Below are positions 6,082-52,300 of a stretch of DNA of 64,000 nucleotides, piece by piece. The translations under genes and the position numbers were made by a program. Source of the DNA: Candidatus Moranbacteria bacterium UBA4824 (GTDB lineage Bacteria > Patescibacteriota > Minisyncoccia > Moranbacterales > UBA2206). The stretch is taken from positions 11,722-75,721 of the forward strand of contig DHFM01000046.1 in assembly GCA_002400405.1 (NCBI GenBank), in the 5' to 3' direction. Each line of letters starts with the position of its first letter. Position 1 is the stretch's first letter. The notes below the pieces were generated by a model. The model was not told the origin of the DNA, did no database searches, and saw nothing but the letters and a program-made list of their open reading frames with translations.

Positions 6082-6187
6082 TCAGAACCACTGATTATCA
6101 CATGAGCTCACTTGATTTCACTGAACAGAAATTTCATTCATGTGTAATCAGTATAATCAGTGCTAATCAGTGGTTCAGACATTTATG
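6079..6187. repeat. Repeat family D copy 1 (about 105-bp structured intergenic leader 'cagaaccactgattatcac...taatcagtggttcagacatttATG')
   Basis: Near-identical to 6584..6693, with 2 substitutions. Fills the whole intergenic space from the stop codon to the ATG of the next gene. Internal inverted repeats (aaccactgatta / taatcagtggtt). Confidence 0.7.
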
Positions 6188-6583: not shown

Positions 6584-6693
6584 ATAATCAGAACCACTGA
6601 TTATCACATGAGCTCACTTGATTTCACTGAACGGAAATTTCGTTCATGTGTAATCAGTATAATCAGTGCTAATCAGTGGTTCAGACATTTATG
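6584..6693. repeat. Repeat family D copy 2
   Basis: Direct repeat of 6079..6187, again running from a stop codon to the next ATG. Confidence 0.7.
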
Positions 6694-25492: not shown

Positions 25493-25779
25493 TTAATTTC
25501 CTGCATAACCTGTGGATAAATATACTATAAACATCCTTATAACTATGTGCCTAGAATATTAAGAATCCTGTTTTTAATCTGAAATATTTCTAAAATATAT
25601 TTTTATTAAATAAATTATACCCCCTATAAAACACTCCATAAAAACACTTATCCAGTTATTATCCACACATATTTAGTTTTATATAAAGCAAAAAACAAGC
25701 TTATCCACTATTATTTTACTCTCTAATAATAGTAATAACATTATATTATTAATAATAAATTAAATACTAAATAAAAAAT
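25493..25779. other. oriC: dnaA-dnaN intergenic DnaA-box cluster plus AT-rich unwinding region
   Basis: tgtggataa (25511, reverse-complement box), ttatccagt (25648), ttatccaca (25658), ttatccact (25701). Then an AT-only stretch at 25741-25779. Gene orientation switches here (minus to the left, plus to the right). Confidence 0.7.
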
Positions 25780-26937
25780 ATGAAATTAATTTGTACAGGA
25801 GAAAATTTAAAGAAAGCAGTTTTTAATTGTGAAAGAGTAGTTTCAAAGAAAAATACTCTTCCTATACTAAATAATATTCTTTTTGAAACAGAAAAAGGAG
25901 GGTTAAAATTATCTGCGACTAATTTAGAAATTGGAGTTTCTTCTAAAATTGGAGCAAAAATAGAAAAAGAAGGGCGAATAACTATTCCCGCAAAACTAAT
26001 TAGTAATTTTTCTAATAATCTTTCGGGTAATGAAAATATCTCCCTTGAACTTGTAGATAATAATTTAAAAATAAAAAGTGGGATAAATAAAGCTATAATA
26101 AAAGGAATTTCTGCAGAAGATTTTCCTCTTTTACCTCTTCGAAAAACCGAATATCTATTAGATATACCTATATTAAATTTAAAAATGGCTATTTTAAAAG
26201 TTATGCCAGCAGTAGCTTTTAATGAATCACGTCAAGAACTTACCGGAATTAATCTTATTTTAAGAGAAAAAGAACTCATTTTTGCTGCTACAGATAGTTT
26301 TCGTCTTTCAGAATGTCAGATTAAGTTAAATGAAATTGATAAAAATATTGAAAATTACAATATTTTTATTGAAAAAAATGAAAATGTTATTATTCCCGCA
26401 AATGTTTTAGTGGAGTTAAATCGGATATTAGCGTCGGATGCAAATAATAAAGTAAAAATAACTATTGAAGAGGGACAAATATTTTTTGAAGTAGATGGTA
26501 TTAAATTAGTCTCACGGCTTATAAATGGGAAATATCCTGAATATAAACATATAATGCCGGCGGAATATAAAACGAGAATAGTGGGAGAAAAACAGATTTT
26601 GCAAAATGCTATTAGGATGGCAAGTGTTTTTTCCTTAAGTGGATCAAATGAGATAACGCTCAAAATTAACCAAGAAGAAGGAAAAATTTTTATACTATCT
26701 TCCAGTGCTGAAGTTGGGGAAAACTCAACTGAACTTAAATTTGACATTACAGGACCATCTCAGGAAGTTGTTTTTAATGCTAAATATCTTTTAGATGGAA
26801 TTAATGCTACTACCACTTCCCAAGTGGCAATTTTGCTAAACAGCGAAGCTACGCCTGTGGCAGTTCGTGAAATAAATGAAAAATCCGGAGAGGTTTTGGA
26901 AGATTTTACCTATATTGTGATGCCGATAAAAAACTAA
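25780..26937 (+). CDS. dnaN: DNA polymerase III beta sliding clamp
   Basis: 385 aa, three-domain beta-clamp pattern. Conserved position after dnaA. Confidence 0.9.
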   Translation: MKLICTGENLKKAVFNCERVVSKKNTLPILNNILFETEKGGLKLSATNLEIGVSSKIGAKIEKEGRITIPAKLISNFSNNLSGNENISLELVDNNLKIKSGINKAIIKGISAEDFPLLPLRKTEYLLDIPILNLKMAILKVMPAVAFNESRQELTGINLILREKELIFAATDSFRLSECQIKLNEIDKNIENYNIFIEKNENVIIPANVLVELNRILASDANNKVKITIEEGQIFFEVDGIKLVSRLINGKYPEYKHIMPAEYKTRIVGEKQILQNAIRMASVFSLSGSNEITLKINQEEGKIFILSSSAEVGENSTELKFDITGPSQEVVFNAKYLLDGINATTTSQVAILLNSEATPVAVREINEKSGEVLEDFTYIVMPIKN

Positions 26938-37950: not shown

Positions 37951-38467
37951 GGTTAAGGTTATTAATTTTTCTACTATTAATGTGGCAAAGCGCAATTGCA
38001 ATCGCATCGGCTGTGTCATCCGGTTTTGGTAAATTTGCTAAATTCAAAATATTCTTAGTCATCAACTGCACTTGCTTTTTTTCCGCTCGGCCGTAGCCCG
38101 TTAGAGCTTGTTTGACTTGGAGTGGAGTGTAGCTAGCTACTCTAACATTATTTTGGCATAAAGTCAAGAGAATTGCCCCCCTGGCTTGGGCGACGGTGAT
38201 AACCGTTTTTTGATTTTTAAAGAAGAAGATTTCTTCTACGCCTGCTTCTTGGGGTTGATATTTTTCAATTATATCTTTCAAATCACGAGATATTTCAAAA
38301 ATTCTATCCTCGTCAGATTTTTCAGGAGAAGTGGCGATGTGGCCATATGCCAAAGGTTTCATTTCCCCATCTTTTTCTTCTAATATAGCCCAGCCAGTTG
38401 TAGCCGTCCCAGGATCAATTCCAAGTACTCGCAAAGTTTTTTTTGAAGTTTCAGCTTTCTTTTTCAT
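37907..38467 (-). CDS. ruvC: Holliday junction resolvase RuvC
   Basis: LGIDPGTATTGWAIL...PQEAGVEEIFFFKN...DDTADAIAIALCH. C-terminal 20 aa encoded by the repeat A array. Confidence 0.85.
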   Translation of the reverse strand: MKKKAETSKKTLRVLGIDPGTATTGWAILEEKDGEMKPLAYGHIATSPEKSDEDRIFEISRDLKDIIEKYQPQEAGVEEIFFFKNQKTVITVAQARGAILLTLCQNNVRVASYTPLQVKQALTGYGRAEKKQVQLMTKNILNLANLPKPDDTADAIAIALCHINSRKINNLNRDSNLQMHSNLRIS

Positions 38468-44292: not shown

Positions 44293-46167
44293 TTAGATTG
44301 TAATTTTCAAGAGGATATGATTTAAGGAAGAATTTATTTTTAGCCAAAGCGAATCTGAAAAAACCACTATCCAATGTTTTTGAGTGGTTGGGGTGGTGAA
44401 AAGATAGTGATTGTCTTTAGAGACAGGTTTAAAACCTGTCATTACGCCTAAAACCCTTGAATTTTGAGGGATTAACTTTTCGGGAAAAGTTATAGTGGGG
44501 CTTGAATAAGCCAAATTATGGCGTGTTTGTTGCTTTTTTTGCCAAATAGGCGAGGAAGTATATTTTCCAAGGTTGGCTTGGATTTCGGAGTCGGGGATAA
44601 TGAGAATATCTTCTTCTGTTGTGGCGCTGGTTCCCTCATCCGCCCTACGGGCACCTTCTCCCAAAGGGAGAAGGGGATTTTCAGTATTATTCTGTGTTTC
44701 TATCCAGCTCCAGCCATCGTCATTTTTTCCATAAAGCTCATCTTCATTGATTTTGTTTTTTTTCCGATCATATTTAATTTTTTGCACAACTTTCCCAGAG
44801 GGGTCGCGCAGTTCAATTTTTGTTTTTTCATTTCCTAAAGTGAAAGCGCAAATTTTTTTGGTGAGCTTTTTGGTTTTGCCTTTTTTGATTTTGAAATCTT
44901 CACGGATCGGATGATTAATTAGTTTGTCTTTTCCAGTGGCGATTGACCAGCCCTTGAGATTGACTTTGTCCTTGGATTGATTTTTAATTTCGATCCATTC
45001 ATTTTTTGTGTCACTTCCTTTGGGATTGGGGGAAAGACTTATTATGCGAATTTTTGGCGCATTATATTTTTCCACCTTAACACTAAAGTCATAGGTTTTG
45101 TCTTCGCCATCCCCAGTAATTTTTAGACTGCCTTTGAATTTTCCAGTTTTTTCATATTTGTGTTTTGTGGATTTTAGATAGCTTTTGTGGCCATCGCCAA
45201 AATTCCAAGTGAATTTTTTAGCGTCTTTTTCAGCTTTCACACTGAAATAGGCATAGGTGTTTTTGTAGATTTTTTTTGGTAGAATTAGTTTTCCGGACAG
45301 TATTTTATCGAAATTATTTTCTCCGCCAGGAGTAGGCAAAGATGTCCACCGCCAATCCGTTCCAGAAAAAGAATAGGAATAGGCGCTTTTTCCATTGGAA
45401 TATTTTTGGCTAGCGATTAAGTTATCTTTTTTGTCATAAAGAAAAACTGTGTCGCCCTTAGAGTCATTATTAAACGAAAAAGAGCCATAAAAAACAATAA
45501 AATTTCCAGTTTTTTCTTTCTTAGTAATTTTTCCTTTGGCACTTTTGGAATCTTTGATGACATAATTGGAGAAGTCAATTTCTTCTCCAGTTAAATTAAT
45601 TATCTCGACAAACTCTTCCTCGTCATTTTTAGTGTCTGGCGCCGGATAAATTTCGTTGATTCTAATCCCCGAATAATCTTGTGTTTCTTCTTCTTCTTCT
45701 TCTTCTTCTTCTTCTTCTTCTTCTTCCCAATTCAAACTATCAATAATAACCCCAGAATTTGTGTCGCCAAGTATTATAGCAATGCCATTTCCTTCGGAAA
45801 TAACACTACTTTTACTAGTGTTAGTCCAAAGATAAATTCCTTTAGCGGGGACAATATCTTCATTTCCAAATGATTTGAAGCTTGTGCGTGTTCCTGTAGA
45901 GGTTTTTTTAACAAGCCTATAATCATCCAAATTAATTGTTTCATTGGTGGTATTAGTAATTTCGATAAAGTCTTCCTCTGTTTTGCCAGTTCCGCCACTG
46001 TATTGAATATCGGTAATTTTTAAAATCGGCTCAGCCAAGCAAATTTTTTCCCAAATAAAAAAGCTAGCTAAAATAACCAGCCCGAAAATAAAATAATAAT
46101 ATTTTTTATTTTTATTTTTCACCCTAAATTTATCCCCCACCACTTTTAGTCTGCGCCAAAGGCGCAA
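44293..46167 (-). CDS. Secreted surface protein with three lamin-tail-domain-like modules, a PKD-like module and a poly-Glu linker
   Basis: Signal/TM (YYYFIFGLVILASFFIW). LTD-like segments (INEIYPAPDTKNDEEEFVEIINLTGEEIDFSNY; ISLSPNPKGSDTKNEWIEIKNQSKDKVNLKGW). PKD-like WNFGDGHKS. Run of about 15 Glu. Confidence 0.5.
   Translation of the reverse strand: MRLWRRLKVVGDKFRVKNKNKKYYYFIFGLVILASFFIWEKICLAEPILKITDIQYSGGTGKTEEDFIEITNTTNETINLDDYRLVKKTSTGTRTSFKSFGNEDIVPAKGIYLWTNTSKSSVISEGNGIAIILGDTNSGVIIDSLNWEEEEEEEEEEEEEETQDYSGIRINEIYPAPDTKNDEEEFVEIINLTGEEIDFSNYVIKDSKSAKGKITKKEKTGNFIVFYGSFSFNNDSKGDTVFLYDKKDNLIASQKYSNGKSAYSYSFSGTDWRWTSLPTPGGENNFDKILSGKLILPKKIYKNTYAYFSVKAEKDAKKFTWNFGDGHKSYLKSTKHKYEKTGKFKGSLKITGDGEDKTYDFSVKVEKYNAPKIRIISLSPNPKGSDTKNEWIEIKNQSKDKVNLKGWSIATGKDKLINHPIREDFKIKKGKTKKLTKKICAFTLGNEKTKIELRDPSGKVVQKIKYDRKKNKINEDELYGKNDDGWSWIETQNNTENPLLPLGEGARRADEGTSATTEEDILIIPDSEIQANLGKYTSSPIWQKKQQTRHNLAYSSPTITFPEKLIPQNSRVLGVMTGFKPVSKDNHYLFTTPTTQKHWIVVFSDSLWLKINSSLNHILLKITI
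45685..45727. repeat. (GAA)n/(TTC)n trinucleotide microsatellite, about 14 units, inside the surface-protein CDS (encodes poly-Glu)
   Basis: Direct run ttcttcttc... on the plus strand. In-frame unit length permits length variation without frameshift. Confidence 0.8.
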
Positions 46168-47258: not shown

Positions 47259-48266
47259 TTAAAATAATTTTTTCTCTCCAATATATTTTATTCCCAGATG
47301 ATTGTAGGCGCTTTCGGTGGCAATGCGACCGCGCGGAGTACGAGCTAAAAATCCGATTTGAATGAGATATGGCTCATAGACATCTTCGATGGTTTTTATT
47401 TCTTCCGAAGTAGCTGCGGCAACTGTGCCAAGACCGACGGGACCACCACCAAACTTTTCGATGATGACTCGCAAGATATGCTTGTCCGCCGGTTCAAGTC
47501 CAAGTGGATCAACATCAATCATTTCCAGTGCTTCAATTGCTACCGCTTCGTTTATAATATCATGATTTTTTATTTGAGAAAAATCTCGCACCCGTTTCAA
47601 AAGACGATTAGCTACGCGAGGAGTACAACGAGCACACTCGGAAATTTTGGAAAGTCCTGTTTCGTCAGCGACTACCCCCAAAATTTTGGCACTACGCTCA
47701 AGAATTTTTTTGATTTCTGGGTTGGTATAAAATTCCAAACGATGAATGGCGCCAAAACGATTGCGGAGGGGATTGGAAATTGAACCTAACTTAGTGGTAG
47801 CGCCAATCAGGGTGAATTTTGGTAGATCAAGTTGAATAGTTCTGGCAGATGGTCCTTTGCCGATTATAATGTCTAATTTATAATCTTCCATGGCTGGGTA
47901 GAGAATTTCTTCGATGGATTTGTTAAGCCTGTGAATTTCATCGATGAATAGAATGTCACCATCAGAAAGATTAGTGAGAATTGATCCAAAATCACCCACG
48001 CGCTCAATGGCTGGACCAGAGGTAGTTTTAATGTTGACTCCCATTTCTTTGGCGATGATGTTGGCGAGAGTGGTTTTTCCAAGCCCCGCGGGACCATAAA
48101 GCAAAACATGCTCAATAGATTCTTCGCGATGTTTGGCCGCTTGAATCAAAATGTCTAAATTTTTCTTAACCTTAACTTGCCCCACATAATCATTGAAATT
48201 TTGCGGACGCAAAGTGACATCAAAACTAATTTCGTCTGGTTGTTCTTTTGAGCTAGTAATGGTCAT
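47259..48266 (-). CDS. ruvB: Holliday junction branch-migration helicase RuvB
   Basis: [12 protein letters not shown]...[19 protein letters not shown]...[13 protein letters not shown]. Canonical RuvB. Confidence 0.9.
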
Positions 48267-48269
48267 AAT

Positions 48270-48378
48270 AATTTTTAATTTTGTAATTTTTAATTTTATA
48301 AATAAATCTAAAATCTAAATTTTTAAAAATTAGAAATTAAGAAATTATTTAAAAATTAAAAAATTAAAAATTGGAAAT
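48270..48378. repeat. AT-only ~110-bp direct repeat, copy 1 (family H)
   Basis: aatttttaattttgtaatttttaattttataaataaatctaaaatctaaatttttaaaaatta... recurs with a few changes at 49222..49333. Confidence 0.6.
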
Positions 48379-48403
48379 TCGAGTAAATTTAGTATACACC
48401 CAT

Positions 48404-48432
48404 TTGACAAAATTTCCAACTTATGCTATGCT
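48404..48432 (+). promoter_or_regulatory. Sigma70-like promoter (TTGACA-17-TATGCT) at the head of a ~450-nt structured leader
   Basis: ttgacaaaatttccaacttatgctatgct. Confidence 0.35.
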
Positions 48433-48633
48433 CCAAAGTCATCTTGAAACTTTATGTTTTTGAGATGATTAGCAGTAAATTGCAGGCAATTGGTGACTTC
48501 TATCTTTTGTCATCAATATAGAAACATTTTTCAAGATATGGGTAGCTGGGTTTCGGCTCGACTATGCCTCGATGTTGTTTCTTTTTTTGGGCTCTTAGCC
48601 CGAATTCTTGCCTGCAGATTATTGGAACTTCGC

Positions 48634-48680
48634 CATTTCAGAACCACTGATTATCACTGATTATACTGATTTCACTGAAT
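48634..48680. repeat. Repeat family D partial copy (cagaaccactgattatcactgattatactgatttcactgaat)
   Basis: Shares the 5' arm of the 105-bp element at 6079 and 6584. Confidence 0.5.
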
Positions 48681-48879
48681 AAAAAATTTAAAAATTCAAA
48701 GAAGGTATCCGAAAAGTTGAGCTTTAGGGTGGAGCCTAAACTTTTCAAAAAGCTCAACTTTAGAGGAGTAAAATTCTATCAAAGCTAAATGTTTTGTGGG
48801 AAAGTTTTTAGGAGATATTTAGTTTTAATGGAAGGGGAATAAATAAAACAAAAAATTCTTTAAAAAATAGGGAGGGAGT

Positions 48880-49131
48880 ATGAAAATTTCTAAAATAGTA
48901 CTTCGTTTTTTTGGTTATTTTTCAATTGAAGAGATTGAGGCAAAAATTAAATTTGCCGAATTTCAAATCAAAACAATAAAAGACGAAAGCAATTATTACA
49001 TAAATCTTATCAGAAAGGGGGAAGCAGGCACTGCAATATCTGATGATTTGCGTCATAATCGTGGGTTACTTCCTTATTATCAAAATGAGTTGAAATTGTG
49101 GACTAAAAAACTAAAGAAAATAAAAAAATAA
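48880..49131 (+). CDS. Small hypothetical protein (83 aa) with strong Shine-Dalgarno
   Basis: GGGAGGGAG 4 nt upstream of the ATG. N-terminal hydrophobic stretch. Lies inside the segment bounded by the family-H direct repeats. Confidence 0.3.
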   Translation: MKISKIVLRFFGYFSIEEIEAKIKFAEFQIKTIKDESNYYINLIRKGEAGTAISDDLRHNRGLLPYYQNELKLWTKKLKKIKK

Positions 49132-49221
49132 AACCAGGCGTGGAGGAGTATGGTGGGAAAAAGAAAAAGGGTTAGCTTGTCGATATAAGCGCCCTTTTTT
49201 TGTTGTCTGAACCACAAAACA

Positions 49222-49333
49222 ATTTTTAATTTTTGAATTTTTAATTTTATAAATAAATCTTAAATCTAAATTTTTAAAAATTAAAAATTGAAATTTATTT
49301 AAAAATTACAAAAATTATAAAATTAAAAATTTT
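49222..49333. repeat. AT-only ~110-bp direct repeat, copy 2 (family H), abutting the stop of the double-PilB gene
   Basis: See 48270..48378. Confidence 0.6.
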
Positions 49334-52300
49334 CTAAAGATCAGTGACTCGTTCCACTTCTTCAAGTGATGTCCCACCTTCCAAAACTTTCAAAATTCCA
49401 TCTTGTGTCATTGTGAGCATGCCGAGTTCGACGGCTTTTTCTTCTAGTTCGGCGGTGATGGCGCCACGGGTGACGAGGTCTTGAATTTCACGGGTTAGTT
49501 GGAAAACTTCACTAACAGTCATGCGACCTTTGTAACCTAGACCGTTGCATTTTTCGCAACCTTTTGGATGATAAATCTCTAAAACTTTGGGAATGTCCAC
49601 TCCCGCCTTTGGACTAATAGTGGCTAAAACTTTTTCAATCATTTCTTTTTCTTTTTCATTTGGCTGGACTTTTTCTTTGCAATCACAAAGGCGACGCACG
49701 AGGCGTTGCGCCATAAAGGCATTGACGGCGGTGGCGATGTCGGACGGGGAAACGCCCATATTGATCATTCGCGCCACTGCTCCGGCGGCGTTGTTGGTGT
49801 GAATTGTAGAAAGCACCAGATGTCCTGTGAGTGAAGCTTGCACGGCTACTTGGGCAGTTTCATCGTCACGAATTTCACCAATCATCATGATATCCGGATT
49901 TTGACGAAGCAGAGCGCGCAGAGCGGTGGCGAAAGTATAGCCTTCTTTGTCGTTGACTGGAGTTTGCAAAATTCCTGGGAGTTGATATTCGATTGGATCT
50001 TCTACGGTGATTATTTTTACTTCCGGTTTATTAAGCATACTGAGAACACTATAGAGTGTGGTAGTTTTTCCACTGCCTGTTGGGCCGGTGTTTAAAATTA
50101 CACCATTAGGTTTTTTTATTTCTGAAATTATTTTGTCTAAGTTTTGTTGTCTAATACCAAGCTTAGTAAGATCCAATTCCATCGATGAACCGCGGAGGAG
50201 TCGCATCACAATTGTTTCACCATAACCACCCAGGATGATCGAAACACGCACATCAATATTTTTTTCGGAGATTGTGATGTCGTCATCAAATTTTATACTA
50301 AAGCGACTGTCAATCACTCCTTGGCGCACTTCAGTTTTCACACCGGAAAGAATTTTAATTTCGCCAAGTAAGGCCGGATATTCATTGAGTGGAAGAGTGG
50401 CAACATTTTGCAAAATTCCATCAATGCGAAAACGAATTTTGACATCATCTTTTTCTGGTTCGATATGAATGTCGCCAACATTGAGAATGGTAGCGGCTGA
50501 AAAAACAATTTTGTTAATATCAGTAGTTTTGGCTGAGCGTAAAATTTCTTCCAGTTTTTTGAAATCCGCTATATTTTCTTGAGCCGAGGTATATTGACTA
50601 TTTTCAATAAGAATTTTTTTGCCCAAAGTTTGGGACATTAATTTCTCATAAATACTTTCCAAAAATTCTCCTTGTCCTGTCGCACTTTCCACTTCATCAA
50701 TGGAAGTGACTCCGGCAATAGCTTTCAAAATTCCATCTTGAAGCATAGTGATCATTCCGGATTCCAAAGCGGCCATAGCTAATTCTGTTTCGCCGGCCAT
50801 TTCTAAAATTAATTTTTCGATATCTTCATTAATCGTGAGTACTTCAAAAATTCCTACGCGACCCTTATACCCCAAACCATTGCATTTCGGACAACCTTTT
50901 GGGCGATAGAGTTTTTCAATGTCTTTGGGAATTTCTACTTTAGCTTTAGGCGAAATAATGGAGAGAATTTTTTTGATAGATTCTATTGATTCTTTTGCTG
51001 GAACATAGGCTTCCTTGCAATCACAAAGTTTTCGCACCAGCCTTTGACCGATAACAGCATTCATAGCGGGGGACATCAAAGTTGGTTTTACTCCAAGCTC
51101 AATAAATCTTGGAATAGCCCCGACAGCATTATTAGTGTGGAGTGAAGACAAAACTAAATGCCCCGTAAGTGCAGAATTAACCGCGATATCAGCCGTTTCA
51201 TCATCGCGAATTTCACCCACTAAAATAACATCTGGATCCTGACGGACAATAGCGCGCAGGCCTTGAGCGAAAGTATAACCTCGTCCTTTTTCTATTTGAG
51301 TTTGAGAAATGCCGGATAATTCATATTCAATCGGATCTTCAATAGTAATGATTTTTTTGTCCGGAGTGTTGAGTTTGTTGATGATTGAATATAGGGTAGT
51401 AGTTTTTCCCGAACCGGTTGGTCCGGTGTTTAGAATCATTCCATTAGGTGAGAGCATTTGTTTTTGCACAGTTTCATAGGCTAAACCTTGGAGACCTAAA
51501 TTTTCCACGCTTACTTTGATTGAATCAGGATCTAGAAGGCGCATTACAACTGACTCACCAAAATTACCAGGGATAATACTCACACGCAAAGCAATTTTTT
51601 TCTCTGCTAGATTTATCTCAAAAGTTCCGTCTTGGGCGATATCGCGAAGATTGAGTTTCATCTTGGACATCAATTTTATGCGCGAGATGATTGTGTTGAA
51701 AACATTGAGAGGTAAAAAGGCGACATCTTGCAAATTGCCATCAATTCGATAACGCAGACGAATTTCTTTTTCTTGCGGTTCAATGTGGACATCGCTGGCA
51801 CCAAGCTTGTAGGCTCCGGCTAGCATAATATTTAGAACTTGAGTAGTGGGAAGTTCTTTAATACGTTGTTTTAGGGTGATCAAATCTTTCATTTCTTCCT
51901 CAAACTTATTCAAATCATCTCCACTAAGACTCAAACTCATTTGATCAAGGATATCTACAAAAACAATCTGTTTATATTTTTCCCAAACGCGATTGATATT
52001 TGAGGTGGAAACGACAAAAAGTTTTATCTGCCAACCTTTTTCAGTTTTTAGATTTTCTATAAAATCATGAGTTTCTTGATTTCTTGGATCGCGAGATATG
52101 ATAGTGACGACTTTGCCACTTCTGTGAATTAGGGCAATGCCGAATTTTCGCGCTTCCTCCTCGGTTAGGAGACGAATATCATCTTTGGAAATTGGGATTA
52201 GATTAGTGTCGACATAGGGAAGATTAAGTTCGGCTGCTAAGGCGCTAGCCATTTCCTCCTCCTCTTTTTTTCTAAATGTAGAAAGAATTTTGGCGGTTTT

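Follow-up and report, generated by a model that had tools for sequence, protein, structure and literature searches.

The closest described counterparts of the locus analysed here belong to several classes. 6S RNA (ssrS; RF00013 and 6S-Flavo) is a single-copy, abundant-type bacterial RNA shorter than 250 nt. It is expressed from a strong housekeeping promoter, and its distant 5′ and 3′ parts pair into a long closing helix, with a long irregular terminal arm in addition. 6S RNAs keep their shape more than their sequence, and divergent lineages have needed models of their own (e.g. 6S-Flavo in Rfam). Orphan structured RNAs such as raiA, OLE and the ROOL/GOLLD-type Rfam motifs are defined by covariation and conserved nucleotides over many genomes, each in one clade only and in a conserved gene neighbourhood, with a function that is not readable from sequence. 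Riboswitches and other structured 5′ leaders stand at the 5′ end of a transcript and are built on multi-helix junctions with invariant junction nucleotides. Among DNA elements, REP/BIME sequences, the Correia elements of Neisseria and MITEs are dispersed units of about 100–110 nt with inverted-repeat ends, which are polymorphic in presence between close relatives and lie beside start and stop codons in short intergenic gaps, and phage morons and integron cassettes are unrelated small ORFs that swap between conserved flanks behind one strong promoter.

Traits of each of these classes recur in the spacer between pilB and ruvB (48270–49333) of a Moranbacteria genome, those of the RNAs in a structured RNA encoded beside ruvB, those of the repeats in two kinds of palindromic element, and those of the cassettes in a slot for small genes. 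The CPR/Patescibacteria, to which this genome belongs, account for much of bacterial diversity, yet to our knowledge their non-coding RNAs are almost unstudied. Positions refer to the window, i.e. the whole stretch of 64,000 nt that was analysed. Our main reading, to which we give a probability of roughly 0.78, is that the spacer holds three separate things: an sRNA gene, a filled slot with an 83-aa gene, and two independent insertions of an AT-only repeat (Table 1). Every sequence feature listed for this segment in the initial annotation was found to be present on re-checking.

A structured RNA gene beside ruvB

The segment 48404–48628 encodes a structured RNA and occurs in one copy, with ruvB (ATG at 48266, minus strand) divergent from it and pilB (stop at 49334) convergent. 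The TTGACA-17-TATGCT promoter of the initial annotation is accompanied by an upstream TG, and the same arrangement, TTGACA-N13–15-TGnTAnnnT, precedes the core in 155 of 156 loci, the −35 box being TTGACA in all 155. Transcription is predicted to start near 48437–48439. The promoter site on the minus strand spans 48419 to 48391; here the AT element stands between its candidate −10 box and the ruvB ATG, and in relatives the homologous TGnTAnnnT of the ruvB side lies 4–6 nt from the sRNA −35 box. In locus L083 the ruvB side reads TGCTAGAAT, followed by 6 nt and the ATG, and a −10 box only 6 nt from the start codon implies that ruvB would be leaderless in that genome.

Table 1. Features of the pilB–ruvB spacer and their positions in the window
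Feature	Position	Strand	Remarks
Left AT-only palindromic repeat, ~110 nt	48267..48378	.	between ruvB ATG (48266) and ancestral ruvB/sRNA promoter region
Candidate ruvB promoter −10 box (TATACT)	48391..48396	-	back-to-back with sRNA −35 box
sRNA promoter	48404..48432	+	−35 TTGACA 48404–48409; 17-nt spacer ending TGC (extended −10); −10 TATGCT 48427–48432
5′ hairpin P0	48438..48470	+	sequence lineage-variable, hairpin kept; conserved AGUC before hairpin
Conserved structured RNA core, four-way junction, 160 nt	48469..48628	+	covariance-model match and covariation
P1	48473–48489 with 48608–48624	+	covariation-supported helix of core
P2	48490–48497 with 48509–48516	+	invariant loop UUCUAUCUUUU
P3	48521–48552 with 48555–48581	+	helix of core
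P4	about 48585–48605	+	helix of core
Half copy of ~100-nt palindromic repeat D	48638..48680	+	TIR TCAGAACCACTGATTATCAC; filler
Long AU-rich hairpin	48710..48760	+	13-bp stem AAAGUUGAGCUUU / AAAGCUCAACUUU; lineage-specific filler, also in L087 and L091
ORF slot 5′ flank	48825..48879	+	conserved; SD GGGAGGGAG at 48870–48878
83-aa protein gene	48880..49131	+	protein predicted as a helical hairpin; many small genes alternate in this slot
3′ module	49132..49201	+	AACCAGGCGTGGAGGAGTATGGTGGGAAAAAGAAAAAGG, then intrinsic terminator: A5, hairpin 49169–49194, T7; bidirectional in form
Right AT-only palindromic repeat	49217..49333	.	touches pilB stop codon (49334)

The plus strand of 48425–48880 folds much more stably than its shuffled versions (z = −5.8); the minus strand does not (z = −2.6). 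This region had been described as a ~450-nt structured leader made of repeat fragments, a description that does not hold, as the structured part is the first ~190–230 nt and is not of repeat origin, and the repeat-derived filler is confined to 48630–48830. The long-range pairing reported for the same region is real, with ~48480–48489 and 48608–48618 forming part of helix P1 (18–21 bp) in a covariation-supported structure that also includes a long, irregular P3. RNAalifold predicted 42 pairs, 27 of them with compensatory changes. When a 56-pair structure was evaluated on 40 MAFFT-aligned sequences, 91.2% of cells were paired, compared with 39–46% when the partners were slid, and 34 pairs changed on both sides. 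The covariation score of the same 40 sequences was 0.416 compared with about 0.11, and none of 500 shuffles reached 0.416, a significance that is inflated because the sequences share kinship, so that the slid-partner controls are the fairer comparison. With 84 distinct independent sequences the corresponding values were 94.0% and 37–47%, and across both alignments slid controls pair in about 43% of cells and compensatory changes occur in 34–35 helix pairs. A number of G-U pairs are kept without, or almost without, exception (39/40, 40/40 and 84/84), and the reverse strand scores ≤27 bits with the covariance model. The covariation support equals in strength that seen in accepted Rfam families.

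Among homologues, indels include whole inserted hairpins, and a P0-type hairpin of ≥5 bp is found in 104 of 122 distinct leaders. In Staskawiczbacteria the core is reduced to ~135 nt, the 5′ side of the junction measures ~6 nt, and P2 is absent. The UCU of the P2 loop and an AGA in P3 are lost together in this group, which may reflect a loop-to-internal-loop contact. Seed pairing by the P2 loop was also considered; its complement, AAAAGATAG, has 4 further copies in the window where ~2 are expected, an uninformative difference.

Among species-representative genomes, 48404–48626 matched the opposite-strand region upstream of ruvB in ~40 (blastn) or ~54 (nhmmer), and the covariance model gave 57 full-length matches of 41–166 bits, one per locus, with Staskawiczbacteria included. 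The window core scores 148 bits (E 1e-37) as the sole match in the window, and ruvB loci from outside the CPR gave none. A motif scan of metagenomes added at least 120 loci, and all 100 loci tested match the model at 79–161 bits. Among the matches listed, ruvB lies divergent within 80–767 nt in 97 of 120; 22 of the other 23 have ≤461 nt of sequence on the ruvB side, and the last (L165) has a transposase-like ORF there. Altogether, at least 170 members were found, the RNA stands beside ruvB in >150 Moranbacteria-type genomes, and its position is the same across a class-level clade (Moranbacteria and relatives). The RNA gene is vertically inherited and single-copy; its tight linkage to ruvB may come from the overlapping divergent promoters.

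No match to the RNA was obtained from the 4227 families of Rfam 15, including the models for 5S rRNA, Y RNA, RNase P RNA, tmRNA and SRP RNA, when the whole window was scanned at the gathering threshold and the E cut-off was relaxed to 10 for the RNA region and to 5 for five divergent homologue loci; these scans gave only chance or terminator-like matches. ARAGORN found no tRNA or tmRNA in the 64-kb window, and the earlier statement that RNase P RNA, tmRNA and SRP RNA are not matched is thereby borne out. SRP genes were not detected in Parcubacteria (PMC4508563). We found no description of the RNA in the open-access literature searched on CPR/Patescibacteria ncRNA, 6S and RNA motifs; an earlier description may nevertheless exist. 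A clade-wide, single-copy RNA with a consensus promoter that falls into none of the 4227 families is a concrete and testable candidate for a new functional RNA.

Possible functions of the RNA

In most species P1 is followed within 5–25 nt by a canonical A-run, GC hairpin and U-run, beyond which lies the pilB stop. In Staskawiczbacteria and L015/L018, P1 lies 2–9 nt from the pilB stop codon, and the bases in between are U-rich in Staskawiczbacteria and L018. The distance from P1 to pilB is ≤200 nt, with no ORF, in 34 of 86 distinct loci. As the RNA is predicted to end at a terminator common with pilB in these ~40% of lineages, it would be a stand-alone RNA there, and the ancestral form would have ended at this bidirectional intrinsic terminator as a discrete RNA of roughly 230–250 nt. 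The window itself has no terminator after P1, and the mature RNA may here be a processed product, or merely the 5′ part of a ~770-nt mRNA.

Our best guess for its role is a trans-acting, protein-binding RNA, which would act as a folded RNP component or protein sequestrator. We infer this from general features only, i.e. the invariant loops, the invariant G-U pairs, the conserved internal loops, the strong constitutive-type promoter and the persistence of the RNA where no ORF follows. As a further possibility, which we hold to be less likely than not, we propose an undescribed class of abundant structured RNA confined to Moranbacteria, Staskawiczbacteria and related Parcubacteria, with a biochemical role of its own that is not that of 6S, SRP, RNase P or a riboswitch. 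Such an RNA would have stayed next to ruvB and the gene for the type IV pilus ATPase throughout the history of the clade. Its strongly transcribed locus would also have come to serve as an expression slot in which genes for small surface-exposed proteins are exchanged by recombination, in hosts that otherwise use leaderless, SD-free translation. Unlike raiA, OLE and ROOL/GOLLD, to which it has no sequence or structure match, this RNA occurs in CPR bacteria and its locus doubles as a variable small-ORF slot; OLE, ROOL and GOLLD are also larger.

A 6S-like binder of RNA polymerase would be the single most plausible known analogue, and in a stricter version the RNA would be the 6S RNA of this lineage, with P1 as the closing stem, P3 as the terminal stem and the P2/P4 junction as a decorated central bubble. 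It would then mimic an open promoter to bind sigma-70 RNA polymerase, and synthesis of a product RNA would release it. The total size of about 190–250 nt, the length of P1, an irregular P3 that could stack on P1 as a rod, the very strong and invariant promoter, and the single gene copy all fit this identity, and sequence divergence too great for cross-phylum homology search is itself a trait of 6S RNAs. A 6S gene was found neither in the 64-kb window nor in five further loci, and no paper reporting 6S in Patescibacteria was found in the open-access literature searched. However, the Rfam 6S models did not match even at E up to 5–10 (window and five divergent homologues; whole genomes lay outside the scan), and the centre of the molecule appears to be not an open bubble but a closed four-way (or three-way) junction carrying two covariation-supported hairpins, P2 and P4; in Staskawiczbacteria P2 is missing and the core and the 5′ side of the junction are short. 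Invariant loop and internal-loop nucleotides are likewise unlike typical 6S RNA, and the 5′ hairpin lies outside the closing stem. We regard an identity with 6S as unlikely; if the RNA is 6S-like, it would be the missing RNA-polymerase regulator of the reduced CPR genomes.

We regard as less probable still that the RNA is a cis-acting 5′ leader, i.e. a riboswitch or protein-binding attenuator, for the small ORFs that follow it, which in ORF-less lineages would control antisense read-through into pilB. Such a leader would account for the long-spacer loci: in 45 of 52 an SD-led ORF follows on the RNA strand, often 26–50 nt past P1, with neither terminator nor promoter between. An ORF is directly downstream in about half of the lineages, where the RNA would stand, like known leaders, at the 5′ end of a transcript that runs on into the ORF. 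The multi-helix junction, the invariant junction and loop nucleotides and the possible P2 loop/P3 contact resemble riboswitch aptamers, and a terminator closely follows P1 in ORF-less lineages. Against this, the full RNA is kept with no downstream gene in the 34 of 86 loci mentioned above, the most distant lineages among them, and elsewhere the ORFs encode tiny membrane proteins and lipoproteins of several unrelated families, which leaves no common ligand logic. Nor is there an expression platform where ORFs follow, as no terminator stands between RNA and SD, and the terminators 5–25 nt past P1 do not overlap P1. No riboswitch family was matched by the RNA region or the five homologue loci in Rfam. 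The earlier proposal of a structured regulatory RNA with a downstream peptide gene survives in part: both the structured RNA and the ORF gene are real, but the RNA, kept terminator-ended where no ORF follows, is probably not primarily a leader.

The small-gene slot

In this lineage the gap from RNA core to terminator is occupied by repeat fragments and one SD-led 83-aa gene, a member of a set of alternative small genes found in the slot in different lineages. The 5′ flank of the slot has 85% identity with its counterpart in L083, where another ORF follows, and a related flank, ...TTTGACAAAGGAGG..., precedes many unrelated ORFs. The 3′ module is kept after different ORFs in L083, L089, L091, L124, L215 and L216, and in these six loci and the window, different ORFs stand between the same 5′ and 3′ flanks. 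In contrast to phage morons and integron cassettes, the slot has no integrase, attC-like sites or phage context; replacement of its ORFs probably proceeds by homologous recombination in the flanks. When slot ORFs were clustered over 1500 nt, the two largest clusters proved to be antisense frames of pilB and were left out.

The 83-aa ORF of the initial annotation, with its SD GGGAGGGAG, is a real gene. A word-index protein search returned the ORF alone, as if it were an orphan, a view that was rejected when an exhaustive HMMER search found two homologues in the same slot (P0122 and P0123; 83 aa, 59–61% identity), and dN/dS is 0.3–0.4. The AF2 model of the protein has a mean pLDDT of 86, and a Foldseek comparison with the PDB gave generic helical hairpins only, none at E ≤ 0.001. 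Neither this ORF nor any of four alternative slot ORFs had a significant match in Pfam, PHROGs or PADLOC. The gene is probably co-transcribed with the RNA and would be translated from read-through of the strong RNA promoter, which would explain the need for an SD in a genome that hardly uses it (1 of 48 long ORFs of the window). The SD-led genes for small membrane proteins and lipoproteins behind the RNA, the rare use of SD elsewhere, and AT-only elements flush against start and stop codons together bear on how CPR genomes express and gain genes.

Repeats at the spacer edges

The two AT-only copies, which had been reported as ~90% identical direct repeats between the ruvB start and the pilB stop, do fill the two edges of the spacer, the left copy touching the ruvB ATG as the right one touches the pilB stop. 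Blastn gives 89–89.6% identity over 115–118 nt (48267/48270–48378 and 49217/49221–49333), or 86% when non-homologous flanks are counted. An exact 25-mer is common to both and found nowhere else in the window (0 matches expected by chance), and the copies are the sole long runs of ≥93% AT in the 64 kb, except for an unrelated stretch at 25722–25795. Each copy is an imperfect palindrome (e.g. arms 48270–48293 and 48349–48372, 96% complementary) with the ends AATTTTTAATTTT...AAAATTAAAAATT, and its flanks are too AT-rich to define a target-site duplication. With terminal inverted repeats, dispersed copies and insertion polymorphism, the element resembles MITEs and REP sequences, from which it differs in being composed almost wholly of A + T and in having 2 copies in 64 kb. 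Copies occupy three kinds of site in a total of at least 11 loci, and the closest relatives lack them. The left repeat alone, in orthologous position, accompanies the same interior in L091/92, L180, L106, L150, L190/L108 and L005, and the right repeat alone is found in L124, at the same junction as in the window. The right copy is absent from L083, L089, L091 and L216; both are absent, with the interior kept, from L083, L087 and L088–L090; and copies stand at unrelated sites in L135 and L207. The AT-only copies are a dispersed palindromic repeat family inserted independently, and are not the ends of a mobile unit.

The segment had also been read as a small integrated element of ~1 kb bounded by the 110-bp repeats, which would then be att sites or a target duplication around an insert with its own promoter, RNA and peptide gene. 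Two direct-orientation repeats that exactly fill the spacer edges invite this view, as does the lack of both in the closest relatives by RuvB (L083, L088–L090), but these same relatives retain the interior, with its RNA gene, its terminator and the flanks of the ORF slot. The left-only and right-only states contradict it, as do the copies at other loci, and the comparison of relatives that had been suggested as a check shows the interior to be ancestral syntenic DNA, retained while the repeats come and go. The RNA gene holds its place across the class-level clade, no integrase or transposase ORF lies in 48270–49333, and no RNA copy was found on viral contigs or, by BLAST, in phage and plasmid records. 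An integrated element is thus very improbable, and a false lead is removed. The repeat 25-mer had one match on viral contigs, which was due to chance and lay in a giant-virus contig of 27% GC.

The least credible alternative, to which we give almost no weight, is that the conservation reflects a small protein (56-aa ORF, 48490–48660) or DNA constraint on the ruvB regulatory region in place of an RNA, for although 79 of 135 distinct homologues have a stop-free frame through the entire core and the ruvB promoter overlaps the sequence that precedes the RNA, codon periodicity is lacking (entropy 0.79, 0.88 and 0.76 by codon position, with no third-position excess), core lengths are evenly split over the three residues mod 3 with indels that include entire hairpins, conservation runs ~230 nt from ruvB, far beyond any promoter, and neither version fits the compensatory double changes in helix pairs or the strand-specific G-U pairs.

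The remaining repeats lie inside the filler. The partial copy of repeat D was confirmed, with intact elements at 6082–6179 and 6588–6685, and a repeat D element stands next to the RNA in L003, L005, L011, L012 and L014. The palindrome noted earlier is present at 48713–48757 and is unique in the window. RuvA is relocated from this locus, being present in L175 and L207, and RuvC is nearby; a role of the RNA as a RuvA replacement was accordingly rejected.

A structured RNA family beside ruvB

Little of the spacer between ruvB and the double PilB/T2SSE ATPase gene is conserved other than 48404–48626, which lies on the strand opposite ruvB and upstream of it. When ruvB loci were compared, with one genome per species, this stretch was matched in ∼40 genomes by blastn and in ∼54 by nhmmer. 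In the alignments the promoter does not vary, the sequence of the 5′ hairpin does, and compensatory changes are evident in the core, e.g. GCAGGC/GCCUGC to GUAGAC/GUCUAC in a helix already spotted as long-range complementary segments in the initial annotation. Of the 42 pairs predicted by RNAalifold, 27 show compensatory changes. In a 56-pair structure, 91.2% of cells are paired versus 39–46% when partners are slid by 1–3 columns, 34 pairs change on both sides, and the covariation score is 0.416 versus ∼0.11 for the control. A covariance model based on 40 sequences returns exactly one match per locus, at 41–166 bits, and the window copy (48469–48628, 148 bits) is the sole one in 64 kb. Matches reach Staskawiczbacteria and other Parcubacteria, which lack hairpin P2 and have a three-way junction, and non-CPR ruvB loci give none. 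A motif scan of JGI metagenomes yielded at least 120 loci; the full model matched in all 100 tested, and 94.0% of cells pair in the independent metagenome sequences versus 37–47% in slid controls. A scan of the window and five divergent homologues against Rfam 15 found no family; the initial annotation reported no match to RNase P RNA, tmRNA or SRP RNA motifs. An RNA family of CPR bacteria that is absent from Rfam is well supported.

The RNA is encoded on the + strand of the window, so that it diverges from ruvB and converges with pilB. This follows from several G-U pairs that vary little or not at all (39/40, 40/40 and 84/84) and would be C-A mismatches in the complementary strand, from the covariance model, which gives the reverse strand no more than 27 bits, and from the conserved promoter, since 155 of 156 loci have TTGACA-N13–15-TGnTAnnnT upstream of the core. 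The fold of 48425–48880 has z = −5.8 on the + strand versus −2.6 on the − strand. Many cores are spanned by a stop-free frame; a protein gene was rejected, as core variability has no codon periodicity, core lengths are evenly spread modulo 3, and some lineages have insertions of entire hairpins.

Some loops (that of P2, UUCUAUCUUUU, among them) and G-U pairs are invariant, internal loops are conserved, the P2 loop may contact the long arm P3 (a contact lost together with P2), the promoter is a constitutive consensus one, and the RNA is retained where no gene lies downstream. Together these features suggest, indirectly, a folded, protein-binding RNA that would act in trans. The nearest known analogue in size and overall shape is 6S RNA, but it is unlikely that the two are the same, as no 6S model matched and the junction here is closed. 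The RNA was absent from the viral contigs, phage records and plasmid records searched, and the searched literature holds no description of it.

Linkage to ruvB and overlapping promoters

The window has a G+C content of 34.5%, and its RuvB is 92–97% identical to proteins named Candidatus Moranbacteria or Moraniibacteriota (Parcubacteria, CPR). The pilB–ruvB order is kept across relatives. The spacer usually measures just 320–450 nt versus 1067 nt in the window. Among the metagenome loci matched by the motif scan, ruvB stands beside the RNA in 97 of 120, and among those listed a single locus (L165) lacks an adjacent ruvB despite enough upstream sequence, a transposase-like ORF occupying its place. 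The RNA–ruvB linkage is near-absolute, and that to pilB is looser. In many loci the promoters of ruvB and the RNA are back-to-back and overlapping, which alone could preserve the linkage; the two may also compete. In the close relative L083, ruvB looks leaderless (TGCTAGAAT, then 6 nt, then ATG), and in the window the left AT-only element stands between ruvB and the counterpart of this apparently leaderless promoter of relatives. The RNA as a replacement for RuvA was rejected because RuvA is not missing. In non-CPR outgroups (L060–L082) ruvA lies directly upstream of ruvB; in Moranbacteria ruvA is relocated, pilB and the RNA gene precede ruvB instead, and ruvC is 2.5–10 kb distant.

Coordinates of features in the window and in compared loci (L numbers: ruvB loci, one genome per species, and metagenome contigs)
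Feature	Position	Strand	Remark
ruvB start	ATG at 48266	−	one edge of segment
Double PilB/T2SSE ATPase gene end	stop at 49334	−	other edge of segment
RNA promoter	48404–48432	+	TTGACA-17-TATGCT, extended −10 TG
ruvB promoter	window 48391–48409; L083 4981–5001; many loci	opposite RNA	extended −10 TGnTAnnnT, 4–6 nt from RNA −35 box
Transposase-like ORF	L165 37–1245		402 aa, beside RNA
ruvA/ruvC arrangement	window 38045–38428; L175 13822–14184; L207 612–1007		
Slot ORFs	window		83 aa
Slot ORFs	L083/L088		84 + 111 aa
Slot ORFs	L089/L090		115 + 33 aa
Slot ORFs	L091/L092		67 aa
Slot ORFs	L124		94 + 88 aa
AT-only element	window 48267–48378, 49217–49333; L124 1444–1549; L135 9955–10066		∼110 nt
AT-only element, further copies	L106 7210–7312; L091 3895–4003		
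Repeat D, intact	6082–6179, 6588–6685		palindromic, ∼100 nt
Repeat D, half copies	48638–48680, ∼49207–49216		

A variable ORF slot behind the RNA

In most species a typical bidirectional terminator (an A-run, then a GC hairpin and a U-run) follows the closing stem P1 within 5–25 nt and precedes the pilB stop codon. In Staskawiczbacteria and loci L015 and L018, P1 is just 2–9 nt from that codon, and the intervening bases are U-rich in Staskawiczbacteria and L018. Among 86 distinct loci holding both RNA and pilB, 34 have a P1–pilB distance of ≤200 nt and no ORF; the other 52 have a longer spacer, which in 45 contains, on the RNA strand, one or more ORFs of ≥30 aa with an SD, as counted with a loose SD pattern. 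As the most distant lineages are ORF-less, the ancestral state was probably a discrete RNA of roughly 230–250 nt, and the slot behind it was colonised repeatedly. The slot ORFs often begin 26–50 nt after P1 with no terminator between. That the RNA serves as a cis-acting leader is even more doubtful than its identity with 6S RNA. The features listed in the initial annotation are all there, and its reading of a structured RNA with a peptide gene is partly right: covariation and dN/dS support RNA and ORF, respectively, and the RNA is not primarily a leader, as it persists where no gene follows.

The slot ORFs fall into a number of unrelated families, all of small membrane proteins or lipoproteins; such a variable-ORF slot attached to the RNA family is unusual. 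Different ORFs have common flanks in the window and its close relatives L083/L088, L089/L090, L091/L092 and L124, namely an SD-bearing 5′ flank and a 3′ module (AACCAGRCGYGGAGG...terminator), and homology breaks at the start and stop codons. Across L003–L212, alternative small genes (30–170 aa, for transmembrane proteins and lipoproteins) are concentrated in the interval from RNA core to pilB, again with a common 5′ flank (...TTTTTTGACAAAGGAGG...) and a common 3′ terminator module. Such flanks suggest cassette-like replacement of slot genes by recombination. The 33-aa ORF of L089 (3009–3110, − strand; MLYILAVIAVILGVIAIILMEISKDIKKIANKK), a hydrophobic helix with a charged tail, resembles type I toxin peptides.

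The 83-aa ORF of the window, present as first described and with the SD GGGAGGGAG, matched itself alone in a word-index protein search; an exhaustive HMMER search revealed two 83-aa homologues (59–61% identity), both in the same slot between RNA and convergent pilB (L215, L216/L217). The arrangement is clean in L216, where RNA and ORF are 80 nt apart and the AT repeat is absent. Pairwise dN/dS of 0.3–0.4 shows that the ORF is a genuine gene. The AF2 prediction is a hairpin of two helices (mean pLDDT 86), with no informative fold or family match. An SD-like motif precedes 1 of 48 long ORFs (≥150 aa) of the window, and a −10-like box at leaderless spacing is found for 13 of 47 window ORFs versus a 9.6% background (∼3-fold enrichment). 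Initiation in the window appears mostly leaderless or independent of an SD, the small ORFs behind the RNA being the exception; all slot ORFs carry a strong SD, which would be consistent with internal initiation on a long transcript begun at the RNA promoter. From 48432 to the ORF the + strand has no further promoter-like site, and we infer read-through from the RNA promoter.

AT-only repeats and other repeated elements

The two AT-only blocks, each an imperfect palindrome, are 89–89.6% identical over 115–118 nt, and one 25-mer is exact in both and has no further occurrence in the window (0 expected by chance). The window holds one other such AT run, unrelated, near 25.7 kb. Homologous elements end in AATTTTTAATTTT...AAAATTAAAAATT and occur at the left site only (L091/92, L180, L106, L150, L190/L108, L005), at the right site only (L124, with a junction to the pilB stop identical to that of the window), at unrelated sites (L207, and L135, in which it fills a narrow gap with an ATG 7 nt further on), or at neither site (closest relatives L083, L087 and L088–L090); in L216 the right copy is missing and the contig ends before the left flank. 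These states refute the proposal of an integrated element bounded by direct repeats: the repeats are separate members of a small dispersed family and mark no unit. In Moranbacteria the insertions are flush (0–7 nt) against start or stop codons, and the element may supply promoter or 5′-UTR sequence to leaderless genes.

The partial copy of repeat D noted initially is half of a palindromic element. Repeat D is REP/MITE-like, with the TIR TCAGAACCACTGATTATCAC, and its intact copies sit between genes of the same direction; fragments are also found directly behind the RNA gene in several other species, namely L003, L005, L011, L012, L014, L125, L129 and L146. Further two-copy direct repeats of 62–138 nt (87% identity) occur in the window at 38378–38515/40268–40405, 7378–7466/63548–63636 and 2134–2195/13378–13439. 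An LTD/PKD-domain protein of 624 aa (44293–46167, − strand), ranging from 510 to 646 aa among relatives, contains a run of 16 consecutive glutamates.
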